Counted from the stretch's first letter, positions 2,518-27,053 are shown. The stretch: 32,000 nucleotides of DNA from Patescibacteria group bacterium (GCA_041649575.1 JBAZMW010000001.1:180001-212000); one strand, 5' to 3'. A program made the numbers and translations. Notes: generated by a model not told the origin, from the sequence alone.

Positions 2518-3525
2518 ATGGTTATAAAAATAAAATTAATAATAATTTTGGTTTTAATCGCGGCGCTAATCGGCGGTTTTTATCTGGCGAGTTTGATTTT
2601 GTCGCCGGCCAGCCGTGAGAGTAAGGTGACTTATTTTTCCATTGAAAGCGGCGAGACGGTGGAACAAATTGCCCAGGATTTAAAAGAGCAAAAATTAATA
2701 AAAAGCGAGCTGGCTTTCAAAGCCTATGTACGCTTTGTGGGCGCGGGTAAAAAATTTGCGGCTGGCCAGCATCAGCTTGGGACCAATATGAGCACAAGAG
2801 AAATAGTCGGAGCTTTAACCAGCAGCGACAATATAAGTAATGAGAAAAAAATTATTATTTTAGAGGGCTGGAGAGCCGAAGATATTGCTAGCTATTTGGC
2901 CCGGGCCAACCTGGTTGATAAAAAGGAGTTTCTCAAAGCCTTACGGCTCGCCCTTTGGCGCGATAAGTATGATTTTTTGAAAGAGGTGCCCGCTAATAAT
3001 TTGGAAGGATTTCTGTTTCCTGATACTTATCGTGTTTTTGCCGATGCCACCAGCAGCGAGATAATAAAAAAAATGTTGGATAATTTTAATCAGAAACTGA
3101 CGGAAAAAATGAGGGCGGACATTAAGCGGCAAAATGGGGATGTTTTCAGTGTGATAATACTGGCTTCAATTATTGAGCGCGAGGGCTTGTCCGATAATGA
3201 CAAAAAGATGATTGCCGATGTATTTATAAAAAGACTAGAGAAAGGAATAGGGTTGCAATCGGACGCCACTATAAATTATATTACGGGCAAAGGAGATCTG
3301 CGGCCAAGTTTGGCGGATTTGCAAATCGATTCACCATATAATACTTATAAATATCGTGGTCTGCCACCGGGCCCAATTTCCAATCCAGGACTGGTCTCGA
3401 TAATGGCGACAATTTATCCGCAGCAAAATGATTATTATTACTTCTTGACCGACAAGAATGGCAAAGCCATCTTTGCCAAGACCTACGAGGAGCATCAGGC
3501 AAACATCAGAAAATATTTAGAATAA
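2518..3525 (+). CDS. mltG: endolytic murein transglycosylase MltG (YceG-like)
   Basis: 335 aa. N-terminal TM helix and YceG-family motifs (LASIIEREG, QSDATINY, YNTYKYRGLPPGPISNPG). Confidence 0.9.
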   Translation: MVIKIKLIIILVLIAALIGGFYLASLILSPASRESKVTYFSIESGETVEQIAQDLKEQKLIKSELAFKAYVRFVGAGKKFAAGQHQLGTNMSTREIVGALTSSDNISNEKKIIILEGWRAEDIASYLARANLVDKKEFLKALRLALWRDKYDFLKEVPANNLEGFLFPDTYRVFADATSSEIIKKMLDNFNQKLTEKMRADIKRQNGDVFSVIILASIIEREGLSDNDKKMIADVFIKRLEKGIGLQSDATINYITGKGDLRPSLADLQIDSPYNTYKYRGLPPGPISNPGLVSIMATIYPQQNDYYYFLTDKNGKAIFAKTYEEHQANIRKYLE

Positions 3526-3530
3526 TTTTT

Positions 3531-4082
3531 ATGGATCAAGGGCATTACACTCGTGGTGAAAAAGAATTTTTGTTAAAGATCGTCAGAACTACGCTGGAGA
3601 AATATTTACAGACGGATGAAAAGTTTGAGCCCCAGACAGTGAACCAGAGACTTTGGGAGAAGCGAGGCGTATTTGTGACTTTGCACAAAAAAGGCGAGTT
3701 GCGTGGTTGCATTGGTTATATCGAGCCGGTTGAGCCCATAATGATGGCGGTACGCGATAACGCTATTGCGGCGGCTAATGATCCGCGTTTTTTACCATTG
3801 GCGGAAGAAGAATTAAAAGAAATAGAGATTGAGATTTCTATTTTGACGCCCTTGGAAAAAACGGTTTTGAGCGAAATAAAAAAGGGTGATGGCGTAATGA
3901 TTAAACGAGGCAGAGCCGGCGCTACTTATTTGCCTCAGGTTTGGGACGATTTACCCGAGCCAGAAGTATTTTTTGGCAGTTTATGTCAGAAAGCGGGACT
4001 AGAAAGAGAATGTTACAAAGATCAAAAGACAGAATTTTATAAATATTCGGCCATTGTTTTTAAAGAGGGGGAGATTTTGTAG
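3531..4082 (+). CDS. AMMECR1 domain protein
   Basis: 183 aa. GVFVTLHKKGELRGCIGY core, then DPRF and a YLPQV segment, all typical of AMMECR1. Confidence 0.85.
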   Translation: MDQGHYTRGEKEFLLKIVRTTLEKYLQTDEKFEPQTVNQRLWEKRGVFVTLHKKGELRGCIGYIEPVEPIMMAVRDNAIAAANDPRFLPLAEEELKEIEIEISILTPLEKTVLSEIKKGDGVMIKRGRAGATYLPQVWDDLPEPEVFFGSLCQKAGLERECYKDQKTEFYKYSAIVFKEGEIL

Positions 4083-4142: not shown

Positions 4143-4149
4143 GTTATTA

Positions 4150-4290
4150 ACAATCAAATTTTCCACAGACAATGGGCGCCCAAAAGGCTTAATTTACCGC
4201 CAAAGCGGTAGACCTATCGAGGAAATAAGGCTAGAGAGCCATTTTTCGAGTCTGTGGAAAACCACGGATTTTTATTTTATAATCATAATT
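4150..4290 (+). promoter_or_regulatory. ribosomal protein L10 leader-like structured 5' UTR
   Basis: About 140-nt untranslated leader directly upstream of rplJ. A long-range stem CCACAGAC (4163-4170) / GTCTGTGG (4250-4257) encloses a G+C-richer core. Position and architecture fit autoregulatory L10 leaders. No covariance model was run. Confidence 0.5.
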
Positions 4291-5327: not shown

Positions 5328-7733
5328 TTAGAAATTAATGTCGATTTGGTAAATTTTATTATCTGCCAGCAGGTAGATTTTTTTATCTTTTTCGGCCACC
5401 GACATGGCTTTTATTTCAGAAAAGTTTTTGGAAATGAATTGGGTCTTCAGGTTGCCTTTTTTGTCTACGACAACGATTCTTTTATTGGTTCGATTTAGCA
5501 GGTAAAGATAGTTAGAATCGGCTTCGGTTTGGATTTGGGCGATATCACTGAAGGCTGGGTCGAGCTTGATACTGAAAGATTCTTTTATTTTGCCGGCAGC
5601 CAAATAATTTATTTCCCCATTGTTTTTGGCGGTAAAAACACCGCCGTCGATAGCCAAGGCGGTGGCCTCCTTAACGCTGGTACCGTCTTTAATCCAGGGA
5701 CTACCGGAGTTGTAGACGTCATTACTGGGGTAGTGTTTGAAAATTTGATTTTTGGCGGTTTTGAGCGTATAGAGCTTGTCGCCATAAACAGCAAAATCTC
5801 TAATAGCAGTGTCGGCGGTGAGAACTTTCTCGGTGGTACCGCCGGAAAAATTGTGGCGGAAAAATTCCCGGTCGCCATTTAAAATTAAAACGCTATTATT
5901 TAAGGCGACGATCTTGGCCACTTGAGTTAAGGGGTTGTTGAGCTGGATAGGGATGGTTTGCGATTTATCCAAATCTATTTTATAGAGTTTTTGATTCTGG
6001 TTGTCGAAGGTAAACAGCAGACCGCCACTCTTTGCTAAACCGACCGTCTGGGAATCAGGGTTCTGATTTTTTAGATCGGCGACTACTTTAGGATTTTCCA
6101 AGTAAGAGACTTTTTGCAAAAGCTGATTCAGATCGGAGACTTTTTTGCCTAAATCGTCGCGGGTTTTTTTGTATTTGCGGGTCAAGGGAATTTTTCCCAA
6201 CAGCTCGCTGGCCTGGCTCAGGGAATTCTTGGCTCCCGCTTCGTCATTGAAAATATTTTGCGCTTCGGCGGAGTTGATGCTCTCCTCGATTTGTTTGGTC
6301 AGCTCATCAATATTTACTTGGGAGTTGGCCGTTGCCTCCCGTCCTTGCCAGACCAGACTTTGGCAAAACAAAAAAACCAAAACAAAGAGAGCGATTATTA
6401 GTATTTGCTTGGGTCGGCGAAGGTTGATAAATTTGGCGATTTGCCGGTTTAGCCAGTCGCTAATAGCCAAGAGCGGCCTGGGTCTTTTTTGAAAAGTTAT
6501 TATTTTTTTGTAATTATCCAGGTTGATCTGATCGGCGATTCTTTTTATTACCGCGGCCGGCCGGATAATCTTTGGCTCTCTTGTTTCGGCCAACTCGTTT
6601 GAGGCCAACGATTCATCGGCCATTCTTTTTTTAGCAACCTCGATTCTTGGCGGCTCGGCGGCGCTGGACAAGGCCTGCTCCGGAGCGGTTTCGTCAGCGA
6701 AAGAAAAATCTTCTGGAGTCGGCTTGACCTGGGGCCGGCGGGCAACAATTTTTTGTTTGAAACCAGAGAAAACGGCAGAAACTGCCAGGCCAATTTTTGC
6801 CAAACCAATTTTTAGATAACCAAATAATTTTTTTGTCGCTTTACCCAGAGCGGAAAAAATTATAATCAGCGCCTTCTTCCAATTAGGCAACAGGGAAGGG
6901 GTAAGATACTTTTCGGTTTTTTCCTGGGTGTCGAGTAGCCGGTTGATGGAGTGTTGGGGGTGGGCATTGGGTCCACTAAGAGCTCTGTCTGCTACCAGTC
7001 GTTGGCTTGTTTCTTTGGTGGCGGCTTCTTCCTCGGGGCCTGGCGATTGGATAATAACGGCATAAAAATTACCCTTGGCTCCTTGCATTTTCAGCACTTT
7101 TTCTATTTCACTGATAGTGGCCATGGAAGTGTTTTCAGCGGCAATCTCCATTAAGTTGCTTTGCGACAAATATTCTAGAATAGCGTTGTTACAAATCAGC
7201 AGGTCGTCTTTGGAAGTAATAGAGCCGCTGATAATATTGGAGAACATCTTTTCCGGATTGTGCTTGGATTTTTTTTCTCCCGCTTGGCTAAAAATGTCAA
7301 TGATTAAATGTTCGTAGCGTTTTTTGTAATGGAAGAGAAAGGCGTTGTTTTTGCCGATCTGGCTAAGATAGATTTTGTTTTTGTGGATCAGGCCGATTAA
7401 GGAATTAATGCCGCCCAGATCGATTTCGGCAATGGATTCCTGGATCATCCTGTAAAGCCGGCGGTTGGCTCGTTGCAGGCATTCCTCGAATCTTTTTTCC
7501 AGGCCGTATTCTATCTCGAAAGGCGGCAAATAATATTCTGTCTGTAAATCAGAAATAATTTCGGAAAATTTTTCCGTCACCTCGTCGGGTAGGCCGGAAA
7601 GTTCTATAATACCGAAAATCACGCCTAGTTTGTTTTTAAGCTCTTTATCGGTATCGGCGATGAAAGCGTCGCCCAGCACGTCCGGATCGGTCTCCCAGGC
7701 CAGCCGGCCAATTTTTATTGGAAAGTTAGTCAT
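5328..7733 (-). CDS. large membrane protein: N-terminal PPM/SpoIIE-like region, central TM segments, C-terminal beta-repeat (propeller-like) region
   Basis: 801 aa, ATG at 7733. Degenerate PP2C-like pattern (GVIFGIIE..., LIGLIHKNKIYLSQIGKNNAFLF). Hydrophobic stretches ALIIIFSALG... and ILIIALFVLVFLFCQSLVW. The C-terminal ~300 aa are short beta-strand repeats. The domain calls are inference only. Confidence 0.65.
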   Translation of the reverse strand: MTNFPIKIGRLAWETDPDVLGDAFIADTDKELKNKLGVIFGIIELSGLPDEVTEKFSEIISDLQTEYYLPPFEIEYGLEKRFEECLQRANRRLYRMIQESIAEIDLGGINSLIGLIHKNKIYLSQIGKNNAFLFHYKKRYEHLIIDIFSQAGEKKSKHNPEKMFSNIISGSITSKDDLLICNNAILEYLSQSNLMEIAAENTSMATISEIEKVLKMQGAKGNFYAVIIQSPGPEEEAATKETSQRLVADRALSGPNAHPQHSINRLLDTQEKTEKYLTPSLLPNWKKALIIIFSALGKATKKLFGYLKIGLAKIGLAVSAVFSGFKQKIVARRPQVKPTPEDFSFADETAPEQALSSAAEPPRIEVAKKRMADESLASNELAETREPKIIRPAAVIKRIADQINLDNYKKIITFQKRPRPLLAISDWLNRQIAKFINLRRPKQILIIALFVLVFLFCQSLVWQGREATANSQVNIDELTKQIEESINSAEAQNIFNDEAGAKNSLSQASELLGKIPLTRKYKKTRDDLGKKVSDLNQLLQKVSYLENPKVVADLKNQNPDSQTVGLAKSGGLLFTFDNQNQKLYKIDLDKSQTIPIQLNNPLTQVAKIVALNNSVLILNGDREFFRHNFSGGTTEKVLTADTAIRDFAVYGDKLYTLKTAKNQIFKHYPSNDVYNSGSPWIKDGTSVKEATALAIDGGVFTAKNNGEINYLAAGKIKESFSIKLDPAFSDIAQIQTEADSNYLYLLNRTNKRIVVVDKKGNLKTQFISKNFSEIKAMSVAEKDKKIYLLADNKIYQIDINF

Positions 7734-16975: not shown

Positions 16976-16983
16976 ATAAAATT

Positions 16984-17031
16984 TTTAGACAAATTTAATA
17001 CCGGAAAGTCGCTGGCGCAACCTTCCAGTAT
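16984..17031 (-). repeat. 48-nt hairpin module R1, 3' of the 122-aa ORF
   Basis: TTTAGACAAATTTAATACCGGAAAGTCGCTGGCGCAACCTTCCAGTAT. 43/48 identical to R2. As minus-strand RNA it forms a 12-bp stem (12/12 paired including 3 G-U) with a GCCA loop, followed by a U-rich tail. Confidence 0.85.
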
Positions 17032-17058
17032 AGTGTTTACCGTGCATTATAATCCAGC

Positions 17059-17427
17059 TCACTCTACTTGAGCATTGATTTCTGCTGTAATGCCGGAGTA
17101 CAACTTGTGGCGTTCCGGCCCCACGATAAATGAGAGAGCGACAAACCCCAGTACAGTTTTATTATGTTTGTATCGAATGTTCCGGCAAAGCCTTTTCATG
17201 ATGCCATGTAAGTACACTGGGTGAGAGCGAATCAAGGCACGGCGAGTGCGTGGGTCCTGCCATTCTTTCAACACCTCCCATGCTTTTTGTTCGTCGTATT
17301 TTTGACTTTCTTGTAATGCCTGGCGTAATTCGTCCGCATAGTCGCGGCGAAAGTTGTCGATCTCTGCGATCGACAAGACTATTGGCACCCCATCATCCAT
17401 TTCCCCGTTTCCACTTTCCGTTCCCAT
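17059..17427 (-). CDS. hypothetical protein (122 aa), island cassette 2
   Basis: ATG 17427-17425 preceded by AGGAGGG (17434-17440, minus) at 6-nt spacing. No motif recognised. Confidence 0.65.
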   Translation of the reverse strand: MGTESGNGEMDDGVPIVLSIAEIDNFRRDYADELRQALQESQKYDEQKAWEVLKEWQDPRTRRALIRSHPVYLHGIMKRLCRNIRYKHNKTVLGFVALSFIVGPERHKLYSGITAEINAQVE

Positions 17428-17494
17428 GACGATCCCTCCTGTTGTAGGTACTGTTTTTAGTCTATCAGATGGTTTTAAAATAGTAAAATTTATA

Positions 17495-17542
17495 TTTAGA
17501 CAAATTTAATACCGGAGGGTCGCTTGCGCAACCTCCCGGTAT
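17495..17542 (-). repeat. 48-nt hairpin module R2, 3' of the 475-aa ORF
   Basis: TTTAGACAAATTTAATACCGGAGGGTCGCTTGCGCAACCTCCCGGTAT. As minus-strand RNA it forms a 12-bp stem (11/12 paired) with a GCAA (GNRA) tetraloop and a U-rich tail. Confidence 0.85.
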
Positions 17543-17568
17543 GTTGATGTACGATCGCCTGACGGCGA

Positions 17569-18996
17569 TTAGTTGAGAGCGACTGCCTCCTGCCTGCCCT
17601 CGGTGCTCAGGACCACATGGTCCTCCTCGAGCCTTAGCACGGCGATGGCGGCGCTGCCCGCGCTCTCATAGGCGTGGTTCTCGTAGATCAGCCGCGGCTC
17701 CTGGCCCGGCACCATGACATAGAGCTCATAGCGTAGTTGCGGGTCGGCGATGCGGTGATCGATCTGCTCCTCGGCCACGAAGACCGCCAGGCCCAGTCGC
17801 GCGCTTATGATCCTGTGCCGTACCGACGGCGTGCGGTAGGACACTTGGCCGGGAGTCCCCATCGGCATCTGTATGACTACGCCGTACTTCTGATCCCCGT
17901 AGTCTTGGTACATCTTTGGCTTCAGGCGCCAAGATGCCATCTTTTGCGCCAGGATCTGGGCGATCGCCGCGTCCACCTCGCCCTCAAAGGCGGCCTGCTC
18001 GGTCTCGTTGAGCTTGGGCGGACTCGGAGTCGCTTCAGTCGGCTCGAAGACAAACTCGGCGATGCGGTTGCCGTACTCCTCGTTGACGAGTTCGACGGTG
18101 ATTTTCACCTGGCCGCCCCTTTCGTCAATTTGGATTTGCCCCAGGTCGTTGATGCACAAATCGTGCCGGTCGGCGCTACTGCTGTAGCGGTTGCGCCACT
18201 GCCATTCTTGCATCTGGTCTCGGCCGTGGTGGTAGATCACCACTTGATCGAAGTAGCCGATGCCGCCACTGCCACCCCACTCGCTTCGGGCTACCAGAAA
18301 CACGGCCGTGTCGGGATCGAGCACCCTGACCTTCCCGATACTGCACCGCTCCATCTTCATCAACTCCTCAATGAACAACCGGAGCCGTGCCGACACTTCT
18401 TGCCCGCCGAGTACCTCGGCCAATGCCTCCTCATGACTCAACCGCGAGTCATCCTCCAGCAATGCTTTGACGCTGGCGGCGGCTTCGGCCAGCTCTTCCC
18501 GCTTCTGCTGGATTTGGCTGGCAAACTCTTCGCCACCGAGAAGAGCCAGCGCTTGGTGTGCGTCGGAGTAGGATTGCCGCCCGATCTCGTAAGTTTCCCG
18601 CGGGAAGTTGTCGGGGGGGAGCTCTTGTACCAAACTCCTGATGCCCAACTCATCGGTCAGGGCCAGGAACTTTTCCGTGAGCTTTCTTTCACAGCAACCA
18701 CAACCATTCATGGTCGGGTCGATTGCACTGAAGGCCTCGGCGATCGCCAGCCGGACCAGGGGATCGGGCTGGGCATTGATGGCCTTGACGATCCGCCCCC
18801 GTTCCTCGGCCGGCAATTCGCGGAGGCGTTGCACATACTTCCCGCCGCGCTGGCCATCGGCCATGGTCACAGGGATGCCGGTGACCTGCTGGGCAACTTG
18901 TAGGCAGACAGACAATTCCAACTGCCGCAGTTGTCGGCCAATCTCTTCCTCCACTTTCCGCGCTTCTTTCAGCGCTCTTTCTCTTTCCTTGTTCAT
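17569..18996 (-). CDS. hypothetical protein (475 aa), island cassette 1
   Basis: I place the start at the internal ATG 18996-18994 (MNKERERALKEARK...), because GGAGGAG (19003-19009, minus) sits 6 nt upstream and the upstream ORF stops at 19019. The track's longer 509-aa form would overlap that gene. Charged coiled-coil-like N-terminus, a CGCCERK cluster and a beta-rich C-terminal half. No family recognised. Confidence 0.75.
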   Translation of the reverse strand: MNKERERALKEARKVEEEIGRQLRQLELSVCLQVAQQVTGIPVTMADGQRGGKYVQRLRELPAEERGRIVKAINAQPDPLVRLAIAEAFSAIDPTMNGCGCCERKLTEKFLALTDELGIRSLVQELPPDNFPRETYEIGRQSYSDAHQALALLGGEEFASQIQQKREELAEAAASVKALLEDDSRLSHEEALAEVLGGQEVSARLRLFIEELMKMERCSIGKVRVLDPDTAVFLVARSEWGGSGGIGYFDQVVIYHHGRDQMQEWQWRNRYSSSADRHDLCINDLGQIQIDERGGQVKITVELVNEEYGNRIAEFVFEPTEATPSPPKLNETEQAAFEGEVDAAIAQILAQKMASWRLKPKMYQDYGDQKYGVVIQMPMGTPGQVSYRTPSVRHRIISARLGLAVFVAEEQIDHRIADPQLRYELYVMVPGQEPRLIYENHAYESAGSAAIAVLRLEEDHVVLSTEGRQEAVALN

Positions 18997-19018
18997 TGTT
19001 GTCTCCTCCGTTCGTCGC

Positions 19019-19315
19019 CTAGTGCGCGAACGCGTTGAGAAACTTTGCCAGCTCCCTCGGCTCTTTCTTGGAATGCCGAAGGAATCTGACGCACGCACCC
19101 ACTAACTCTGCTCCGAAATTCTCTTCCCGGCAGGCGATAGCGTACCACCTGGCTGCCAGCGCCTTTTTGCGTTTGCCGGTCCTGGCTAGGACCAGATTAT
19201 ACGCCTTGGAAGGACTGGTAGCAGACTCGGTGAGGTTGAGCAGTTCGGGTACGGCCCAAACCGCCTTGGCGCGTGCCAATAACTCGATCAGACGCTTGAC
19301 GTCTTTTGGTGTCAT
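19019..19315 (-). CDS. hypothetical small protein (98 aa), first gene of the island operon
   Basis: Start moved to ATG 19315-19313 (MTPKDVKRLIELL...), with AAGGAG (19322-19327, minus) 6 nt upstream. Predicted helical and basic. No family recognised. Confidence 0.65.
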   Translation of the reverse strand: MTPKDVKRLIELLARAKAVWAVPELLNLTESATSPSKAYNLVLARTGKRKKALAARWYAIACREENFGAELVGACVRFLRHSKKEPRELAKFLNAFAH

Positions 19316-19371
19316 GGCTTGCTCCTTTCCTCTGTAAGGTGCTATCAAGCTGATTGCCAGCTTAACTAATA

Positions 19372-19400
19372 ATTATATCATATTATAACATAATTGTCAA
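19372..19400 (-). promoter_or_regulatory. consensus sigma70 promoter driving the island operon
   Basis: On the minus strand: TTGACA (19400-19395), exactly 17 nt, TATAAT (19377-19372). This matches the consensus at 12 of 12 positions. Confidence 0.65.
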
Positions 19401-19483
19401 TGGTATTTTGTTATTTTATTTAAATTTAGCCAAAAATAATAAGTATTTTTGCCAAAAGTAGCAATTTGAATTAAAATATAGTT

Positions 19484-20563
19484 ATGAATTTTTGGAAAAA
19501 AATAAAAAAGCCCTGCCTATCCGGCAGGCAGGCGATTTTGGCTCTAGCCCCAATGGCTGGGGTTTCTGATTCGGCTTTTCGACAGGTCTGCAGAGAGTAT
19601 GGCGCCGATGTAGTCTATACCGAAATGGTATCGGCCGACGGCCTTTTTTATGATTCCAAAAAAACTTTGGAATTTTTAAAATTCAATAAAAAAGAACATC
19701 CGGTGGTAATTCAGCTGTTTGGCAAACAGTCTGAAAGATTCACTAAGGCCGCGCAAATTTGCGAGCAAGCCGGCTTTGACGGTATTGATATTAATTTTGG
19801 TTGTCCGGCCAAAAAAGTTGCTGGCCATGGCGGCGGAGTGACGCTGATGCGCGATTTGCCAAAGTGTCGAGAAATCATTGAGGCGGTTTTGGCTGGCACC
19901 AAGTTGCCGGTATCGGTGAAGTTGAGATCTAGTATTAATGTCAGGGGTTTGCCATGGCAAACCCCTGCATGCGGCAACCTGGTGACAGCTTTGGATTTTA
20001 TAAAATTTATGAAAGATTTGCCGCTCTCGGCAGTGATGATTCATGGCCGGCCATACGAAAACCCTTTCAATGCCGAAATAGATTATGAGATGATTAAGAA
20101 ATGCGTTGAATTTATAAAAAATAATTATTATTTAATGACACGGGATTGCCACCTGTCTCGCCGAGCCAAGGCGGACGCTCCGCTCGCAATGACAGCGCCA
20201 ATAGTTTTGGGTAATGGCGGTATTAAGACACCAGAAGATGCAAAAAGAATGTTGGAACAAACCGGCGCCGATGGTGTTGGGCTGGCTCGCGGGCTTTATG
20301 GCCGGCCGTGGCTGTTTCGGCAAATTAAAGACTATTTAAAGAAAGGAAAATACAGTAATCTAAAACTAGAAGAGATAAAAAAAATTATTTTAGAGCATGC
20401 TAAATTGGCTTTTGAAAACAAGGATAAACACGGCATAGTGGAATTAAGGAAGCATTTGGCTTGGTATATTACTGGCCAGCCTGGCGCCAGAGAGTTAAGG
20501 GCTAAGTTGGTACGGGTGGAAGATGTAAAAGAAATAAAAGCGATTTTAAAGTATTTAAAATAA
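19484..20563 (+). CDS. dus: tRNA-dihydrouridine synthase carrying three in-frame palindromic insertions
   Basis: 359 aa. LAPMAGVSDSAFR, INFGCPAKKV, VSVKLR and HGR motifs, plus a C-terminal helical domain. About 37 extra residues come from the insertions at 19512-19528, 19942-19967 and 20135-20194. Confidence 0.88.
   Translation: MNFWKKIKKPCLSGRQAILALAPMAGVSDSAFRQVCREYGADVVYTEMVSADGLFYDSKKTLEFLKFNKKEHPVVIQLFGKQSERFTKAAQICEQAGFDGIDINFGCPAKKVAGHGGGVTLMRDLPKCREIIEAVLAGTKLPVSVKLRSSINVRGLPWQTPACGNLVTALDFIKFMKDLPLSAVMIHGRPYENPFNAEIDYEMIKKCVEFIKNNYYLMTRDCHLSRRAKADAPLAMTAPIVLGNGGIKTPEDAKRMLEQTGADGVGLARGLYGRPWLFRQIKDYLKKGKYSNLKLEEIKKIILEHAKLAFENKDKHGIVELRKHLAWYITGQPGARELRAKLVRVEDVKEIKAILKYLK
19512..19528. 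repeat. small G+C-rich hairpin insertion near the dus N-terminus
   Basis: CCTGCC-TATCC-GGCAGG. Encodes part of PCLSGRQA, which interrupts the usual short N-terminus before LAPMAG. Confidence 0.65.
19942..19967. repeat. perfect 26-nt palindrome inside dus
   Basis: CAGGGGTTTGCCATGGCAAACCCCTG equals its own reverse complement. Translated in-frame as (V)RGLPWQTPA. Confidence 0.9.
20135..20194. repeat. 60-nt nested palindromic element inside dus (long form of the cysS element)
   Basis: ATGACACGGGATTGC...GCAATGACA. Its reverse complement starts TGTCATTGCGAG and ends GCAATCCCGTG, as in cysS 16597-16634. The core 20151-20175 is identical to rplL 4866-4890. Confidence 0.85.
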
Positions 20564-21563: not shown

Positions 21564-21616
21564 TTGAAGCCAGGTTAGTAATTACCTTTTTATTATAGCA
21601 TAAAAATATTGTTTTG

Positions 21617-21625
21617 TGCTATAAT
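21617..21625 (+). promoter_or_regulatory. extended -10 promoter element (TGcTATAAT)
   Basis: TG at 21617-21618, TATAAT at 20620+1000-1005 i.e. 21620-21625. It lies inside the TTG-started version of the ORF in the track, which argues for a downstream start. Confidence 0.45.
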
Positions 21626-21655
21626 AAAAATGAAATAATTACTCCGTCAAACCAA

Positions 21656-22183
21656 ATGGTTGATTCGCAAAAAATGAAAAAAGTGGAGCAAGAACCCTTG
21701 GGTACGGCCGATTTCAAGCCGGAGGCTTTCAGGCTGCCCCAAAAAGAAAAAGCTCCTTTGCCGGTGCCAGAGAAACCGCAACTGGAGTCCGGGGACAATC
21801 TGGAATCCTCCAGGCTGTCCAACCAGTCGGAGATGGTGCAGGCGGGGGAATTGATTCAGCGCCATGCTCTGCCGCCAACCGCCAGCCTTTACGAAGAAGA
21901 CTACCGGCGCATCGAGAAGGTGCTGGAGGAGAATTTGAGTGATTTTTATTTTCGTCTCTCGCCCTTGGAACAACAGAAGTTCAAGCAAAAAGGCGAGGAG
22001 ACAACGGTGGCAATTTTAAGGATTATTTCCAAGCCTAGATTCAAAATAAGAAGAATAGTGGAGCTGATAAAAAATTGGCTGAAGCTGTTGCCGGGAATCA
22101 ACCGTTTTTTTCTGGAGCAAACAGCCAAGATTAAAGCCGATAAAATCATAGTGGAAGTCACCAGAAAAAGACCATATTTTTGA
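21656..22183 (+). CDS. hypothetical protein (175 aa) translationally coupled to the T4CP-like ATPase
   Basis: First ATG downstream of the putative promoter (MVDSQKMKKVEQ...; ATG 21674 is an alternative). Pro/Glu-rich, probably disordered N-half and helical C-half. The stop TGA (22181-22183) lies 2 nt before the next ATG. Confidence 0.55.
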   Translation: MVDSQKMKKVEQEPLGTADFKPEAFRLPQKEKAPLPVPEKPQLESGDNLESSRLSNQSEMVQAGELIQRHALPPTASLYEEDYRRIEKVLEENLSDFYFRLSPLEQQKFKQKGEETTVAILRIISKPRFKIRRIVELIKNWLKLLPGINRFFLEQTAKIKADKIIVEVTRKRPYF

Positions 22184-22185
22184 TT

Positions 22186-24747
22186 ATGGATCTGACTCTT
22201 AATCAAACAACCGCGGTATTGCCGGAGCTGGTAAACCAAATTGCTTTTTGGCTGGTTTTTGGCTTGGCCCTAGCGCTGGCGGTGGTTTTAATTTTGTTGA
22301 CTTTGAGAAAGATTTTGCGTTCTTATAAAATTTATGCGGCGGTTTTTGAAAATAAAATTTTTCGGCTGACGCTGCCCAAAAGAACAATCGAAAAAGAAGA
22401 AGAACGCAAAACTGTCAAAGAAATGCTCTCCGGCGTGGAAAATCTCTATGCCAATTTGGGAGGACTAAGGGCGTCGCGCGGTTTCAAGACCTGGCTGTTC
22501 GGCCGCTATGATCATTGGGCGCTGGAGATCGTGGTGGGCGAGGACCAGCTGATCACTTTTTATCTGGCGGTGCCCAAATATTTGGAAGATTATTTAAAAC
22601 AGCAGTTTTTGTCGCAGTATCCGTATTGTCAAATTGAAGAAGTTGAAGATTACAATATTTTCAAGCCCCAAGGCTATGTGGCGGTTGGCCACTTAAAGAC
22701 GATAAAAAACAAAATGTTTCCCATTCTGACCTATAAACAGATGGAGATCGATCCTTTGGTGGCGGTTTTGAGCTCGCTGGCCAAGCTGCCACCGGGGCAG
22801 ACGGCCGCTATCCAGCTGGTGATGCGTTCGGCCAGAGGCGAATGGCGCAACCAGGGAATCAAAGTCGCTTCCCAAATGCAGCAGGGCAAAAATTTAAAAC
22901 AAGCCCTGGGCGCGGTCAGTTCCAAAGGAGTTTCCGGCGCTCTAGGCAAGCCGGCAGACTGGTTTTATGCCGCCGGCACCGGCAAAAACAAGTCGCAACA
23001 ACTTAACAAGCAACCGGAGCTATATCGCTTGTCGCCGATGGAAGAGCAAGTGGTCAAATCTCTGGAAGAAAAGGCTTCCAAGGCCGGGTTGGACGTCAAT
23101 ATCAGAATCGTGGCCTTTGCTCCGCTGGAAAATCAGGCCAAAGAGATTTTGCGGCGGATTTGCAACTCTTTCGCCCAGTATTCCAGCTACGAATATGCCA
23201 ATGGCTTTAAGGCCGTAATCAAGGGTACGGGCAGAAAATTGATCGGCGATTTCATTTACCGTCATTTTGACGAAAGCATCAACATGATTTTAAATACCGA
23301 GGAACTGACTTCTTTGTGGCACTTGCCGCTACCCAATACCGAAGTGCCCAATATTCTTTGGCTCCAGGCCAGAAAGCTGCCGCCGCCGGTCAATATGCCG
23401 CCAGAGGGAATAATTTTGGGAGAAAATGTTTACCGCGGCCAGCAGACAATCGTTAGAATGAAAGACGCGGATCGCCGGCGCCATATGTATATTATTGGTA
23501 TGACCGGCACCGGCAAATCGACAACCATGGCCACCATGGCCATTCAGGATATCAGAGCCGGCAAGGGCGTCTGTGTCATTGATCCGCACGGCAGCCTGAT
23601 GGAAGAAATTATTCCCCATATTCCCGAAGAAAGGTTTGAAGACGTGATTATTTTTGATCCCGCCGACGTCGAGCGGCCGCTGGGGCTTAATATGCTGGAG
23701 GCCAAGAGCTCCTACGAAATGGACACGGCGGCTCAAGAAATGATCACTATTTTTTATAAATTATTGCCGGATCCGGCCATGGCTGGCCCGATGTTTGAGC
23801 ATTATATGAGAAACGCGCTTTTGGCGTTGATGGCCGATCAGGATGATCCTGGCACCTTGGTGGAACTGGCCAGAATTTTTACCGACGAGCCGTTCCGCAA
23901 AAAGAAATTGGAGCATGTCAAGGATATTTTAGTCAAGGATTTTTGGGAAAGAGAATACACGGCCTCGCAAAAGGGATCGACCGGCGCCGACATGCTTTCT
24001 TATGTCATTTCCAAAACCGGCCGTTTTGTGGAAAACGAGCTGATGAGAAATATCATTGGTCAGTCGAAATCAGGCATCAACTTTCGCGAGGCGATGGACC
24101 GGCAAAAAATACTGCTGATGAATTTATCCAAAGGAAAAATCGGCGACACCAATAGTAATCTATTGGGGCTGATCGCCGTTTCCAAACTGCAAATGGCGGC
24201 TTTAGCCAGAGCCGACATGCCTGAGAGCCAGCGTAAAGATTTTTATCTGTATATCGATGAGTTTCAGAATTTCATTACCGACAGCATTTCTGTAATTTTA
24301 TCGGAGGCCAGAAAATACAAACTCAATTTGGTGATGGCTCACCAGTACATCGCCCAATTAGTGCAGAACAACGATACGCGGGTTAAGGACGCGGTTTTTG
24401 GCAATGTGGGTACGATAGTCTGCTACCGCATCGGCGTGGACGACTCCGAGGTGATGGCCAAACAACTGGCTCCGCAAGTCAATGAGTTTGACGTGATGAA
24501 TATTGAAAAATACCATGCCTATGTCAGGCTGTTGATAGATAACACCGCCTCGGAAACTTTCAATATGCTGGCTTATCCGCCAGACAAAGTGGCGGCCAGC
24601 TCGGCGGATCCGGAAATCGTCAAGCCGCTGAAAGAGCTGTCCCGGCTGAAATACGGCCGTGACCGCAACTTGGTGATAAGAGAAATAATAGAGCGGTCGA
24701 AAATCGGGCAGCTGGGCGTCAAGCCGCCTAGCCCGCTTGGCAAATAA
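22186..24747 (+). CDS. membrane-anchored TraD/VirD4-like (type IV coupling protein / DUF87-type) P-loop ATPase
   Basis: About 853 aa from ATG 22186. N-terminal TM (IAFWLVFGLALALAVVLILLTL), Walker A GMTGTGKST (23497-23520), Walker B-like YLYIDEFQNF (around 24256-24267), then ARKYKLNLVMAHQY, typical of the TraG/TraD C-terminal region. Confidence 0.8.
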   Translation: MDLTLNQTTAVLPELVNQIAFWLVFGLALALAVVLILLTLRKILRSYKIYAAVFENKIFRLTLPKRTIEKEEERKTVKEMLSGVENLYANLGGLRASRGFKTWLFGRYDHWALEIVVGEDQLITFYLAVPKYLEDYLKQQFLSQYPYCQIEEVEDYNIFKPQGYVAVGHLKTIKNKMFPILTYKQMEIDPLVAVLSSLAKLPPGQTAAIQLVMRSARGEWRNQGIKVASQMQQGKNLKQALGAVSSKGVSGALGKPADWFYAAGTGKNKSQQLNKQPELYRLSPMEEQVVKSLEEKASKAGLDVNIRIVAFAPLENQAKEILRRICNSFAQYSSYEYANGFKAVIKGTGRKLIGDFIYRHFDESINMILNTEELTSLWHLPLPNTEVPNILWLQARKLPPPVNMPPEGIILGENVYRGQQTIVRMKDADRRRHMYIIGMTGTGKSTTMATMAIQDIRAGKGVCVIDPHGSLMEEIIPHIPEERFEDVIIFDPADVERPLGLNMLEAKSSYEMDTAAQEMITIFYKLLPDPAMAGPMFEHYMRNALLALMADQDDPGTLVELARIFTDEPFRKKKLEHVKDILVKDFWEREYTASQKGSTGADMLSYVISKTGRFVENELMRNIIGQSKSGINFREAMDRQKILLMNLSKGKIGDTNSNLLGLIAVSKLQMAALARADMPESQRKDFYLYIDEFQNFITDSISVILSEARKYKLNLVMAHQYIAQLVQNNDTRVKDAVFGNVGTIVCYRIGVDDSEVMAKQLAPQVNEFDVMNIEKYHAYVRLLIDNTASETFNMLAYPPDKVAASSADPEIVKPLKELSRLKYGRDRNLVIREIIERSKIGQLGVKPPSPLGK

Positions 24748-26979: not shown

Positions 26980-27053
26980 TGCGGGATCGTCTAATGGTAG
27001 GACACGCCCCTCTGGAGGGCGGTATCATGGTTCGAGTCCATGTCCCGCAGCCA
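26980..27053 (+). tRNA. tRNA-Gln (anticodon CUG), CCA encoded
   Basis: Manual cloverleaf: acceptor TGCGGGA/TCCCGCA (U1-A72), D arm GTCT-AATGGTA-GGAC, anticodon arm CGCCC-CTCTGGA-GGGCG, variable loop GTAT, T arm CATGG-TTCGAGT-CCATG, discriminator G, then CCA. Confidence 0.9.

Follow-up and report, generated by a model that had tools for sequence, protein, structure and literature searches.

A candidate laterally spread expression cassette in the cysS–dus interval of a Patescibacteria genome

A stretch of 32,000 nucleotides from a Patescibacteria group bacterium (GCA_041649575.1 JBAZMW010000001.1:180001-212000, here called the window, with positions counted from its first letter) contains a G+C-rich island between the housekeeping genes cysS and dus. 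We lean, with no great confidence, towards the view that the core of this island is a self-contained, laterally spread expression cassette in which the first gene (ORF1) is constant and the second gene is interchangeable. The cassette would consist, in order, of a near-consensus sigma-70 promoter, a leader with a strong Shine–Dalgarno (SD) sequence, ORF1, an interchangeable second gene as cargo and an intrinsic terminator. The cargo in the window would be a protein of what we call the ORF2 family, whose C-terminal domain would serve as the effector, and the whole unit would travel among Patescibacteria together with its promoter, leader and terminator. Patescibacteria have tiny genomes with many unannotated genes, and little is understood of the ways in which they gain new functions and express them; the locus exposes an architecture that is both recurrent and recognisable, in which a consensus promoter, a conserved leader and strong SD sequences accompany a constant ORF1 and a partner that can be exchanged.

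Every ORF1 homolog for which genomic context is available has a co-directional partner gene directly downstream, and ORF1 is the constant component of the cassette family. The partner belongs to the ORF2 family in the window and in loci L001, L007, L036, L037 and L044 (L numbers designate loci of other genomes). The L007 partner has 34% identity to ORF2 (E = 1e-79) and lies at a site near mraY and murD, and the L044 partner is a distant relative (E = 9e-11). Unrelated partners of 141, 142, 239, 183 or 71 aa follow ORF1 in L004, L005/L006, L042/L043, L045 and L046; the L005 partner was considered as a possible ORF2 relative and proved unrelated by the ORF2 profile. A preliminary description of the window, which had read the 22-nt gap between ORF1 and ORF2 as a sign of an operon and had suggested a search for recurrence of the 98-aa and 475-aa pair, is supported in both respects, as the operon-like pair recurs in six locus types, with other partners elsewhere. 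The modules of ORF1 and its partner occupy unrelated chromosomal sites in other Patescibacteria, and genes of the ORF2 family frequently occur where ORF1 is absent. Neither these protein families nor the cassette family turned up in searches of the literature.

The expression signals and the base composition recur along with the genes. A perfect TTGACA with an extended −10 element precedes the ORF1 homologs in 7 of 11 loci, and a leader ending in GCAC(C/A)TT..ACAGGAAAGGAGCACGCCATG is common to nine loci from different genomes. SD sequences with at least 5 of 6 matches were found for 17 of 26 module genes compared with 9 of 124 host genes (p = 5e-10 by Fisher’s exact test), where the host gene starts were those of the longest ORFs, a choice that may understate SD use in the hosts. 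The G+C content at third codon positions (GC3) is higher in the module than in its host in 17 of 19 loci, over host baselines ranging from 0.19 to 0.55 and with unrelated partners included; in L046 the values are 0.59 and 0.19, respectively.

The window belongs to a metagenome-assembled genome of an ultra-small groundwater member of the Patescibacteria, whose relatives, judged by the Dus protein, are Buchananbacteria-like. The gene order is corA-dus-ORF1-ORF2-ORF3-cysS-murF, and the three island ORFs, all on the minus strand, have exactly the positions and lengths first reported for them (Table 1). The abrupt rise in G+C content reported at the same time is borne out by 500-nt bins, with values of 0.62, 0.60 and 0.59 over 17501-19000 compared with 0.38–0.47 in the flanking bins and about 43% elsewhere. 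GC3 reaches 0.68 in ORF1 and 0.76 in ORF2, while the 26 other ORFs of the window have a mean of 0.50±0.06 and a maximum of 0.62 (0.42 for the L10 gene). The corresponding z-scores relative to host genes are +3.0 for ORF1 and +4.5 for ORF2, which is the atypical composition that characterises genomic islands, and the shift acts at the nucleotide or codon level. Codon adaptation as the source of the high GC3 can be ruled out because highly expressed host genes (L10, L20, L35 and IF3) are not GC3-rich. The claim of high G+C content did not hold for ORF3, which with 48% G+C and a GC3 of 0.52 (z = +0.4) is host-like. Instead of a homogeneous three-gene island, the unit is a two-gene cassette to which ORF3 would have been added later.

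Three features of the island had initially been missed: a promoter matching the sigma-70 consensus at 12 of 12 positions, a conserved 5' leader, and a 51-nt direct repeat. The SD sequences of ORF1, ORF2 and ORF3 match AGGAGG at 5, 5 and 6 of 6 positions with a spacing of 5–8 nt, compared with at most 4 of 6 in all 21 host genes checked, which puts numbers to the original impression of strong SD sequences in the island and their near-absence around it. Host leaders are A/T-rich, as in the genes at 889, 4294, 12252 and 19484. About half of the Parcubacteria are reported to lack the anti-SD motif in 16S rRNA (PMC9297842), which makes the contrast between host and cassette notable. The near-absence of host SD sequences fits that report; the 16S gene of this host lies outside the window. 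We also considered a helix in which GCACCTT of the leader would sequester the SD sequence AAGGAGC, and found it unsupported by the controls: the helix is 85% paired, yet it has only one covarying pair, and 40–79 of 500 shuffles reach the observed values. A separate G+C-rich hairpin followed by a T-run (CCTGCCTGCCGGATAGGCAGG GCTTTTTTAT) lies at 19512-19532 within the first codons of dus (19484-20563) and can be read as a terminator for the minus strand. The 7-aa insertion CLSGRQA in the N-terminus of Dus falls at this hairpin, and short insertions of other kinds occur there in several relatives; the hairpin could insulate the cassette promoter from antisense transcription.

The 51-nt repeat consists of a hairpin and a tail and reads as the cassette’s own intrinsic terminator, duplicated so that its two copies bracket ORF3. 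For the minus strand the folding energy of either copy is −23.7 kcal/mol (z = −3.8 for copy 2 and z = −5.2 for copy 1), and the hairpin of copy 1 reaches only −12.1 kcal/mol on the plus strand, where three G-U pairs turn into C-A mismatches. The 3' arm and tail are identical between copy 2 of the window and the terminator of L001. A dispersed REP-like repeat was rejected as an explanation, there being two copies in 32 kb and one in L001. A hairpin followed by GTTAAAATTGTCTTAAAT downstream of dus in L016 (7930-7995) resembles the tail of the cassette terminator, TATTAAATTTGTCTAAA, and the TTGTCT(A/T)AA tail may, judging from this resemblance, be a clade-typical terminator feature rather than a cassette-specific one.

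ORF3 and one terminator copy form a clean 511-nt indel in comparison with L001. Either they were gained by recombination at the terminator, or they were lost from L001 by recombination between the repeats; we picture ORF3 as a later, lineage-specific addition that would have entered, or been retained, together with the second terminator copy. No relative of ORF3 other than itself was found among 5.8 billion proteins. The label of orphan genes, originally applied to the whole island, therefore fits ORF3 and has to be withdrawn for ORF1, with 17 relatives, and for ORF2, with 242 family representatives.

Table 1. Features of the island in the window and recombinase regions at related loci
Feature	Coordinates	Strand	Description
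Cassette promoter	19372..19400	minus	TTGACA, 17-nt spacer, TG-n-TATAAT; 12/12 sigma-70 consensus, extended −10
5' leader	19316..19366	minus	about 50 nt; 5'-terminal hairpin 19344-19366, GCACCTT 19336-19342, SD AAGGAGC 19321-19327
ORF1	19019..19315	minus	98 aa, basic (about +10 net by residue count), all-alpha, invariant TGKRKKALAARW motif
ORF2	17569..18996	minus	475 aa; helical N-terminal half (aa 1 to about 200, CGCC cluster), conserved beta-rich C-terminal core
ORF2-family core domain	17572..18396	minus	aa about 200-475 (about 270 aa); motifs SRSEWGGSGGIGYFDQV, EWQWRDRY, EEQIDHR, DPQxRYELYV
Terminator copy 2	17492..17542	minus	after ORF2; 15-bp G+C-rich hairpin, GCAA loop, then tail TATTAAATTTGTCTAAA
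ORF3	17059..17427	minus	122-aa singleton, host-like composition, perfect AGGAGG SD; absent from L001
Terminator copy 1	16981..17031	minus	after ORF3, beside cysS stop; 88% identical to copy 2
Serine-recombinase region, L005	3800-7317		
Serine-recombinase region, L006	1203-5111		
Serine-recombinase region, L036	1695-4766		

Searches of Pfam, NCBIfam, PHROGs and PADLOC gave no significant match for any of the three proteins, in line with the original statement that none belongs to a known family. Housekeeping families, which had been named as a possible alternative, were not found by these profile searches, nor by structure searches with ORF1 and ORF2. Rfam has no match inside the island.

The 17 relatives of ORF1 have 46–73% identity to it, and no Pfam match was found in any of the 18 members of the family. 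The AlphaFold2 model (pLDDT 92.2, pTM 0.83) has 6–7 helices, and a Foldseek comparison with the PDB gave no convincing counterpart (best E 1.5, TM about 0.3). Whereas the anatomy, recurrence, composition, expression signals, slot variability and neighbourhoods of the cassette are observed, the biochemical roles of ORF1 and ORF2 and the route of transfer are inferred. ORF1 may bind nucleic acid and so regulate the cassette or serve it as an adaptor, as suggested by its positive charge (about +10 net), by a segment of the model that resembles a helix-turn(TGK)-helix and by an invariant putative recognition helix, KRKKALAARW. The predicted helix pattern (H35-46, turn TGK, H49-64) is the sole basis for comparing it with a helix-turn-helix (HTH) protein.

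ORF2 appeared nearly orphan in a word-indexed search, with 4 relatives, whereas an exhaustive HMMER scan defines a family of 242 representatives at 50% identity with E ≤ 1e-3, 178 of them with E ≤ 1e-10. Many members are stand-alone C-terminal domains of 256–284 aa. Residues R237, G245, E264, D276, F337, Y387, P390, G402, E410, Q411, I412, D413, Q420 and Y443 of the core are at least 90% conserved (alignments A1 and A3), and the cysteine cluster CGCCERK reported initially is present in ORF2 and semi-conserved in the long members of the family. The AlphaFold2 model is usable (pLDDT 79.6) and shows the helical N-terminal half followed by two beta-sheet units parted by a long helix. No convincing PDB counterpart was found by Foldseek (best E 0.016, TM about 0.3 or less), BFVD holds no viral counterpart of the fold, and sequence-profile searches of the PDB with alignments A1, A2 and A3 gave nothing. 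Pfam scans of 10 long family members and then of 74 members detected no fused domains. The broad alignment A3 was too diverse to provide search patterns as a locus query. The near-invariant E264, D276, E410, Q411 and D413, which include the EEQIDH cluster, suggest that the core is possibly a metal-dependent enzyme.

The neighbours of ORF2-family genes may point to signalling. About 15 loci have usable flanking sequence, with ORF1 upstream in six. A stand-alone receiver (REC, PF00072) gene adjoins the ORF2-family gene in five of them: L022 and L023 above the Pfam threshold, L039 and L044 below it, and the contig that carries P0003 by a precomputed Pfam hit. L044 combines REC, ORF1 and an ORF2-like gene in one array. 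Divergent TrmB regulators lie upstream in four loci (L031, L038, L039 and the P0003 contig). Because the family recurs beside REC proteins and TrmB regulators, the ORF2 core can be interpreted as a phospho-signalling effector, presumably a REC-controlled cytoplasmic effector or output protein. The arrangement resembles that of single-domain, CheY-like response regulators in its stand-alone REC genes, and it differs from them in its uncharacterised effector domain and in that no histidine kinase was seen in any locus. A second model matched by the REC proteins is cREC_REC, according to Pfam a receiver domain for the processing of cyclic phosphates. The two protein families thus defined, with structure models and with no Pfam or PDB counterpart, include one that is linked by neighbourhood to receiver-domain signalling.

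The site between cysS and dus is a variable slot, and the distribution of the module is patchy, as is that of genomic islands. L001 (GCA_041650015.1) has ORF1 and ORF2, without ORF3, at this site and in the orientation seen in the window; it shares the promoter layout, has a single terminator copy and forms the leader hairpin, in which one change is compensatory. It is not a close relative of the window genome, as its Dus, CysS, CorA and VirD4-like proteins are 63–72% identical to those of the window; the identities of ORF1 and ORF2 are 72% and 57%. Its GC3 values are 0.59–0.62 for ORF1 and 0.68 for ORF2 compared with a host mean of 0.47, so that the prospect of relatives carrying the same genes in native composition, raised in the preliminary description, is realised for the genes and not for the composition. 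The empty site that one might expect in other genomes exists in L017-L019, where cysS and dus are adjacent and 6–62 nt apart. Unrelated genes occupy the slot in L009, L012, L015 and L016, and in L008, L011 and L014 a gene that is UvrB-like (by N-terminal motifs only) takes the place of cysS and small lineage-specific minus-strand ORFs precede dus. One ancient insertion and site-preferential insertion both fit this pattern. Single-gene neighbour-joining trees are star-like and leave a sister relationship of the window and L001 unresolved: the two pair for CysS, and not for virB4, dus or corA.

The CysS proteins encoded beside dus fall into two deeply split types, about 65–70% and about 46–50% identical to that of the window (L012, L017, L018 and L019 compared with the window, L001, L015 and L016). 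The split departs from the similarities of dus, virB4 and corA, and L018 is close by those genes, yet has the distant type of CysS. This suggests, on the strength of these identities, xenologous replacement of cysS at a recombination-prone junction.

Several observations weigh against a laterally spread cassette or against parts of its proposed function. The island is flanked by cysS, murF, dus and corA, and no recombinase was detected when ten other proteins of the window were scanned with Pfam; there is no tRNA or tmRNA insertion and no flanking att repeat, and the sole long direct repeat is the internal one that brackets ORF3. The first description had likewise seen no integrase, transposase or tRNA at the borders, and the only tRNA in the window is tRNA-Gln at 26980; no recombinase lies near the island. 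IMG/VR viral contigs, GenBank phages and PLSDB plasmids contain no relatives of ORF1 or ORF2, so that these collections reveal no vehicle. ORF1 has no recognisable HTH fold or family match, so the HTH-like reading has no support from the fold. The window’s own module has no REC or TrmB neighbour, PF00072 is absent from its three proteins, and in two other loci the REC-like signal falls within a module protein: the N-terminus of the L036 protein is weakly REC-like, a possible fusion to the ORF2 core, and the ORF1 partner in L004 is also weakly REC-like. The possible understatement of host SD use mentioned above counts on the same side. Finally, acquisition is not demonstrably recent, because the L001 pair sits in the same slot and is about as diverged as the flanking housekeeping genes, a likeness that argues, as far as protein identities go, for long residence. 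If residence has been long, the GC3 excess is not left-over donor composition and needs another cause; possible ones are repeated replacement from a G+C-richer cassette pool via the conserved ends, or selection on the mRNA. The original proposal of a horizontally acquired module keeps its accessory character, foreign-looking composition and own expression signals, is strengthened by the variable slot and the occurrence at unrelated sites, and loses the orphan status of ORF1 and ORF2 and the three-gene unit.

The same facts about L001 lend some credit to an operon that is ancient, lineage-specific and inherited vertically. The pair would have entered or arisen once in the common ancestor of the window and L001 and would since have behaved like any chromosomal operon, with GC3, SD sequences and promoter kept by selection for strong or special expression and not by continued transfer. 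Slot, orientation, promoter layout and terminator tail are shared, the module proteins (72% and 57% identity) have diverged about as far as those of the flanking genes (63–72%), the two genomes group in the cysS tree, and the window has no mobility genes. However, the modules of other genomes lie at unrelated sites with swapped partners, two of them adjoin serine recombinases, the trees of virB4, dus and corA do not join the window and L001 as sisters, the slot is empty or otherwise filled in equally related genomes, and high GC3 is not a trait of the highly expressed host genes. On balance we regard such an operon as rather unlikely, while granting it a real chance.

A toxin–antitoxin (TA)-like or anti-phage module would overlap in form with the laterally spread cassette; ORF1 would be a DNA-binding antitoxin or regulator and the variable gene a toxic or defensive effector, with REC proteins as sensors in some versions. 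The layout does recall type II TA systems and regulator-led defence operons, with a small, conserved, basic protein first, a variable and larger partner second, a strong and possibly autoregulated promoter, patchy distribution in variable slots and foreign composition. The match of the REC proteins to cREC_REC would suit this idea, as would the serine recombinase of L036 with its two small minus-strand ORFs, which are toxin/antitoxin-like by eye only. Against it, PADLOC gave best E-values of 0.005–0.039, on unrelated models, and Pfam shows no toxin or antitoxin domain in ORF1–3 or in the alternative partners. Nor has the ORF1 fold a PDB counterpart, and the ORF2 family is large, with well-conserved, sizeable proteins that often occur without ORF1. 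Scans of the window proteins revealed no phage genes, and no defence genes lie beside the island. We therefore consider a TA or defence function unlikely.

A third possibility is that the island is a moron-like remnant of a mobile element, that is, what is left at this site of a prophage or serine-recombinase element after the loss of all but its regulatory or cargo end. Phage morons, as described by Hendrix and colleagues, are reportedly autonomous promoter–gene–terminator units between conserved genes. The cassette is similar in having its own strong promoter, an intrinsic terminator and a deviant composition, in lying between two undisrupted conserved genes and in lacking a recombinase of its own. 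In contrast to morons, it lies amid housekeeping genes of a bacterial chromosome rather than in a prophage, has no relatives in IMG/VR, GenBank phages or BFVD, and is defined by a constant first gene and a variable second gene. A hint of an element comes from large serine recombinases (Resolvase, Recombinase and Zn_ribbon_recom domains) located 1.7–2.6 kb from the module in L005/L006 and L036, where the module edges a block containing the recombinase; these regions (Table 1) are candidate integrative elements carrying the cassette. The small accessory genes beside the recombinases encode DUF5659 in L005/L006 and the two small ORFs already mentioned in L036. An ORF6N (phage antirepressor-type) gene lies nearby on the contig that carries P0003. 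However, phage and plasmid homologs are missing at the level of sequence and no viral fold matches, the surroundings of the window’s island hold no element remnants or att repeats, and L001 has the same minimal pair with no other element genes. The remnant explanation is in our opinion improbable enough to be given little weight.

An assembly chimera or a contaminant fragment of a higher-GC organism, a danger also named in the preliminary description, has nothing but the abrupt composition change in its favour and is refuted practically beyond doubt because three independent assemblies from different samples (JGI/NCBI, 245 kb; ENA, 126 kb; a Logan single-run contig, 3 kb) are 100% identical over both junctions, the ENA and Logan contigs showing the identical arrangement from corA to murF, L001 as a second genome has the same arrangement, and the AT-rich sequence of the promoter region and of the terminator tail passes without a break into the intergenic DNA of the host.

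Two further known systems invite comparison with the laterally spread cassette. As in integron cassettes, an imperfect hairpin stands behind each of ORF2 and ORF3; the two hairpins are homologous, with a 3' flank that is conserved and stems that vary and are in part compensated, and ORF3 plus one hairpin behaves as an insertable unit. However, no IntI integrase and no attI with a Pc promoter was found among the ORFs scanned in the 32-kb window, and the attC core GTTRRRY is absent, by reading of the sequence and not by an attC covariance model, from the hairpin junction ...TTGTCTAAA. The hairpin tail GTCTAAA misfits GTTRRRY, there are two units only, and a hairpin with a U-rich tail reads as an ordinary intrinsic terminator. 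The unit is thus neither a moron (it is not in a prophage), nor a recognised toxin or defence system (it matches no such model), nor an integron cassette (it has no IntI or attC core). It comes close to the genomic islands described in Patescibacteria (PMC12455944), which likewise involve transfer of small gene sets with atypical composition within the phylum into streamlined genomes; a cassette family with a constant ORF1, a conserved leader and an SD anomaly is not described there.

Horizontal transfer between Patescibacteria is documented to be frequent (PMC12455944), and the likely route for the cassette would be DNA uptake and recombination, at times as cargo of a serine-recombinase element. 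A broader speculation we put forward as a long shot. The unit would represent a hitherto unrecognised class of Patescibacteria-specific, integrase-independent, promoter-to-terminator cassettes, exchanged via DNA uptake and recombination that would take hold at their conserved ends, one formed by the leader and the 5' part of ORF1 and the other by the terminator tail. ORF1, with its new fold, would license SD-led expression of the cargo in SD-poor hosts, and ORF2 would be the founding member of a family of REC-coupled effector enzymes, again with a new fold. If the notion of a mobile expression unit is true, it provides a handle on gene flow in the phylum, and its promoter, leader and terminator may serve as parts for genetics in these organisms.

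Some features of the wider surroundings also deserve mention. Adjoining corA and dus is a gene for a VirD4/TraG-like coupling ATPase of 855 aa (TrwB_AAD_bind and T4SS-DNA_transf domains; 21614-24747), which is conserved in L001, L008-L011, L013-L016 and L018 and is preceded in most of them by a gene for a partner of 189 aa that Pfam does not match. The ATPase gene behaves like a core gene and not like part of a conjugative element. An ORF of 801 aa (5328-7733, minus strand) with no Pfam domain at E ≤ 1e-3 encodes a large uncharacterised protein amid housekeeping genes. Ahead of the L10 leader detected by Rfam (4145-4284) and of rplJ, the stretch 2518-4082 holds a YceG/MltG gene and an ORF of 183 aa instead of the usual rplK-rplA, an arrangement that may be tied to the subgroup of Parcubacteria lacking uL1 (mentioned in PMC9297842).

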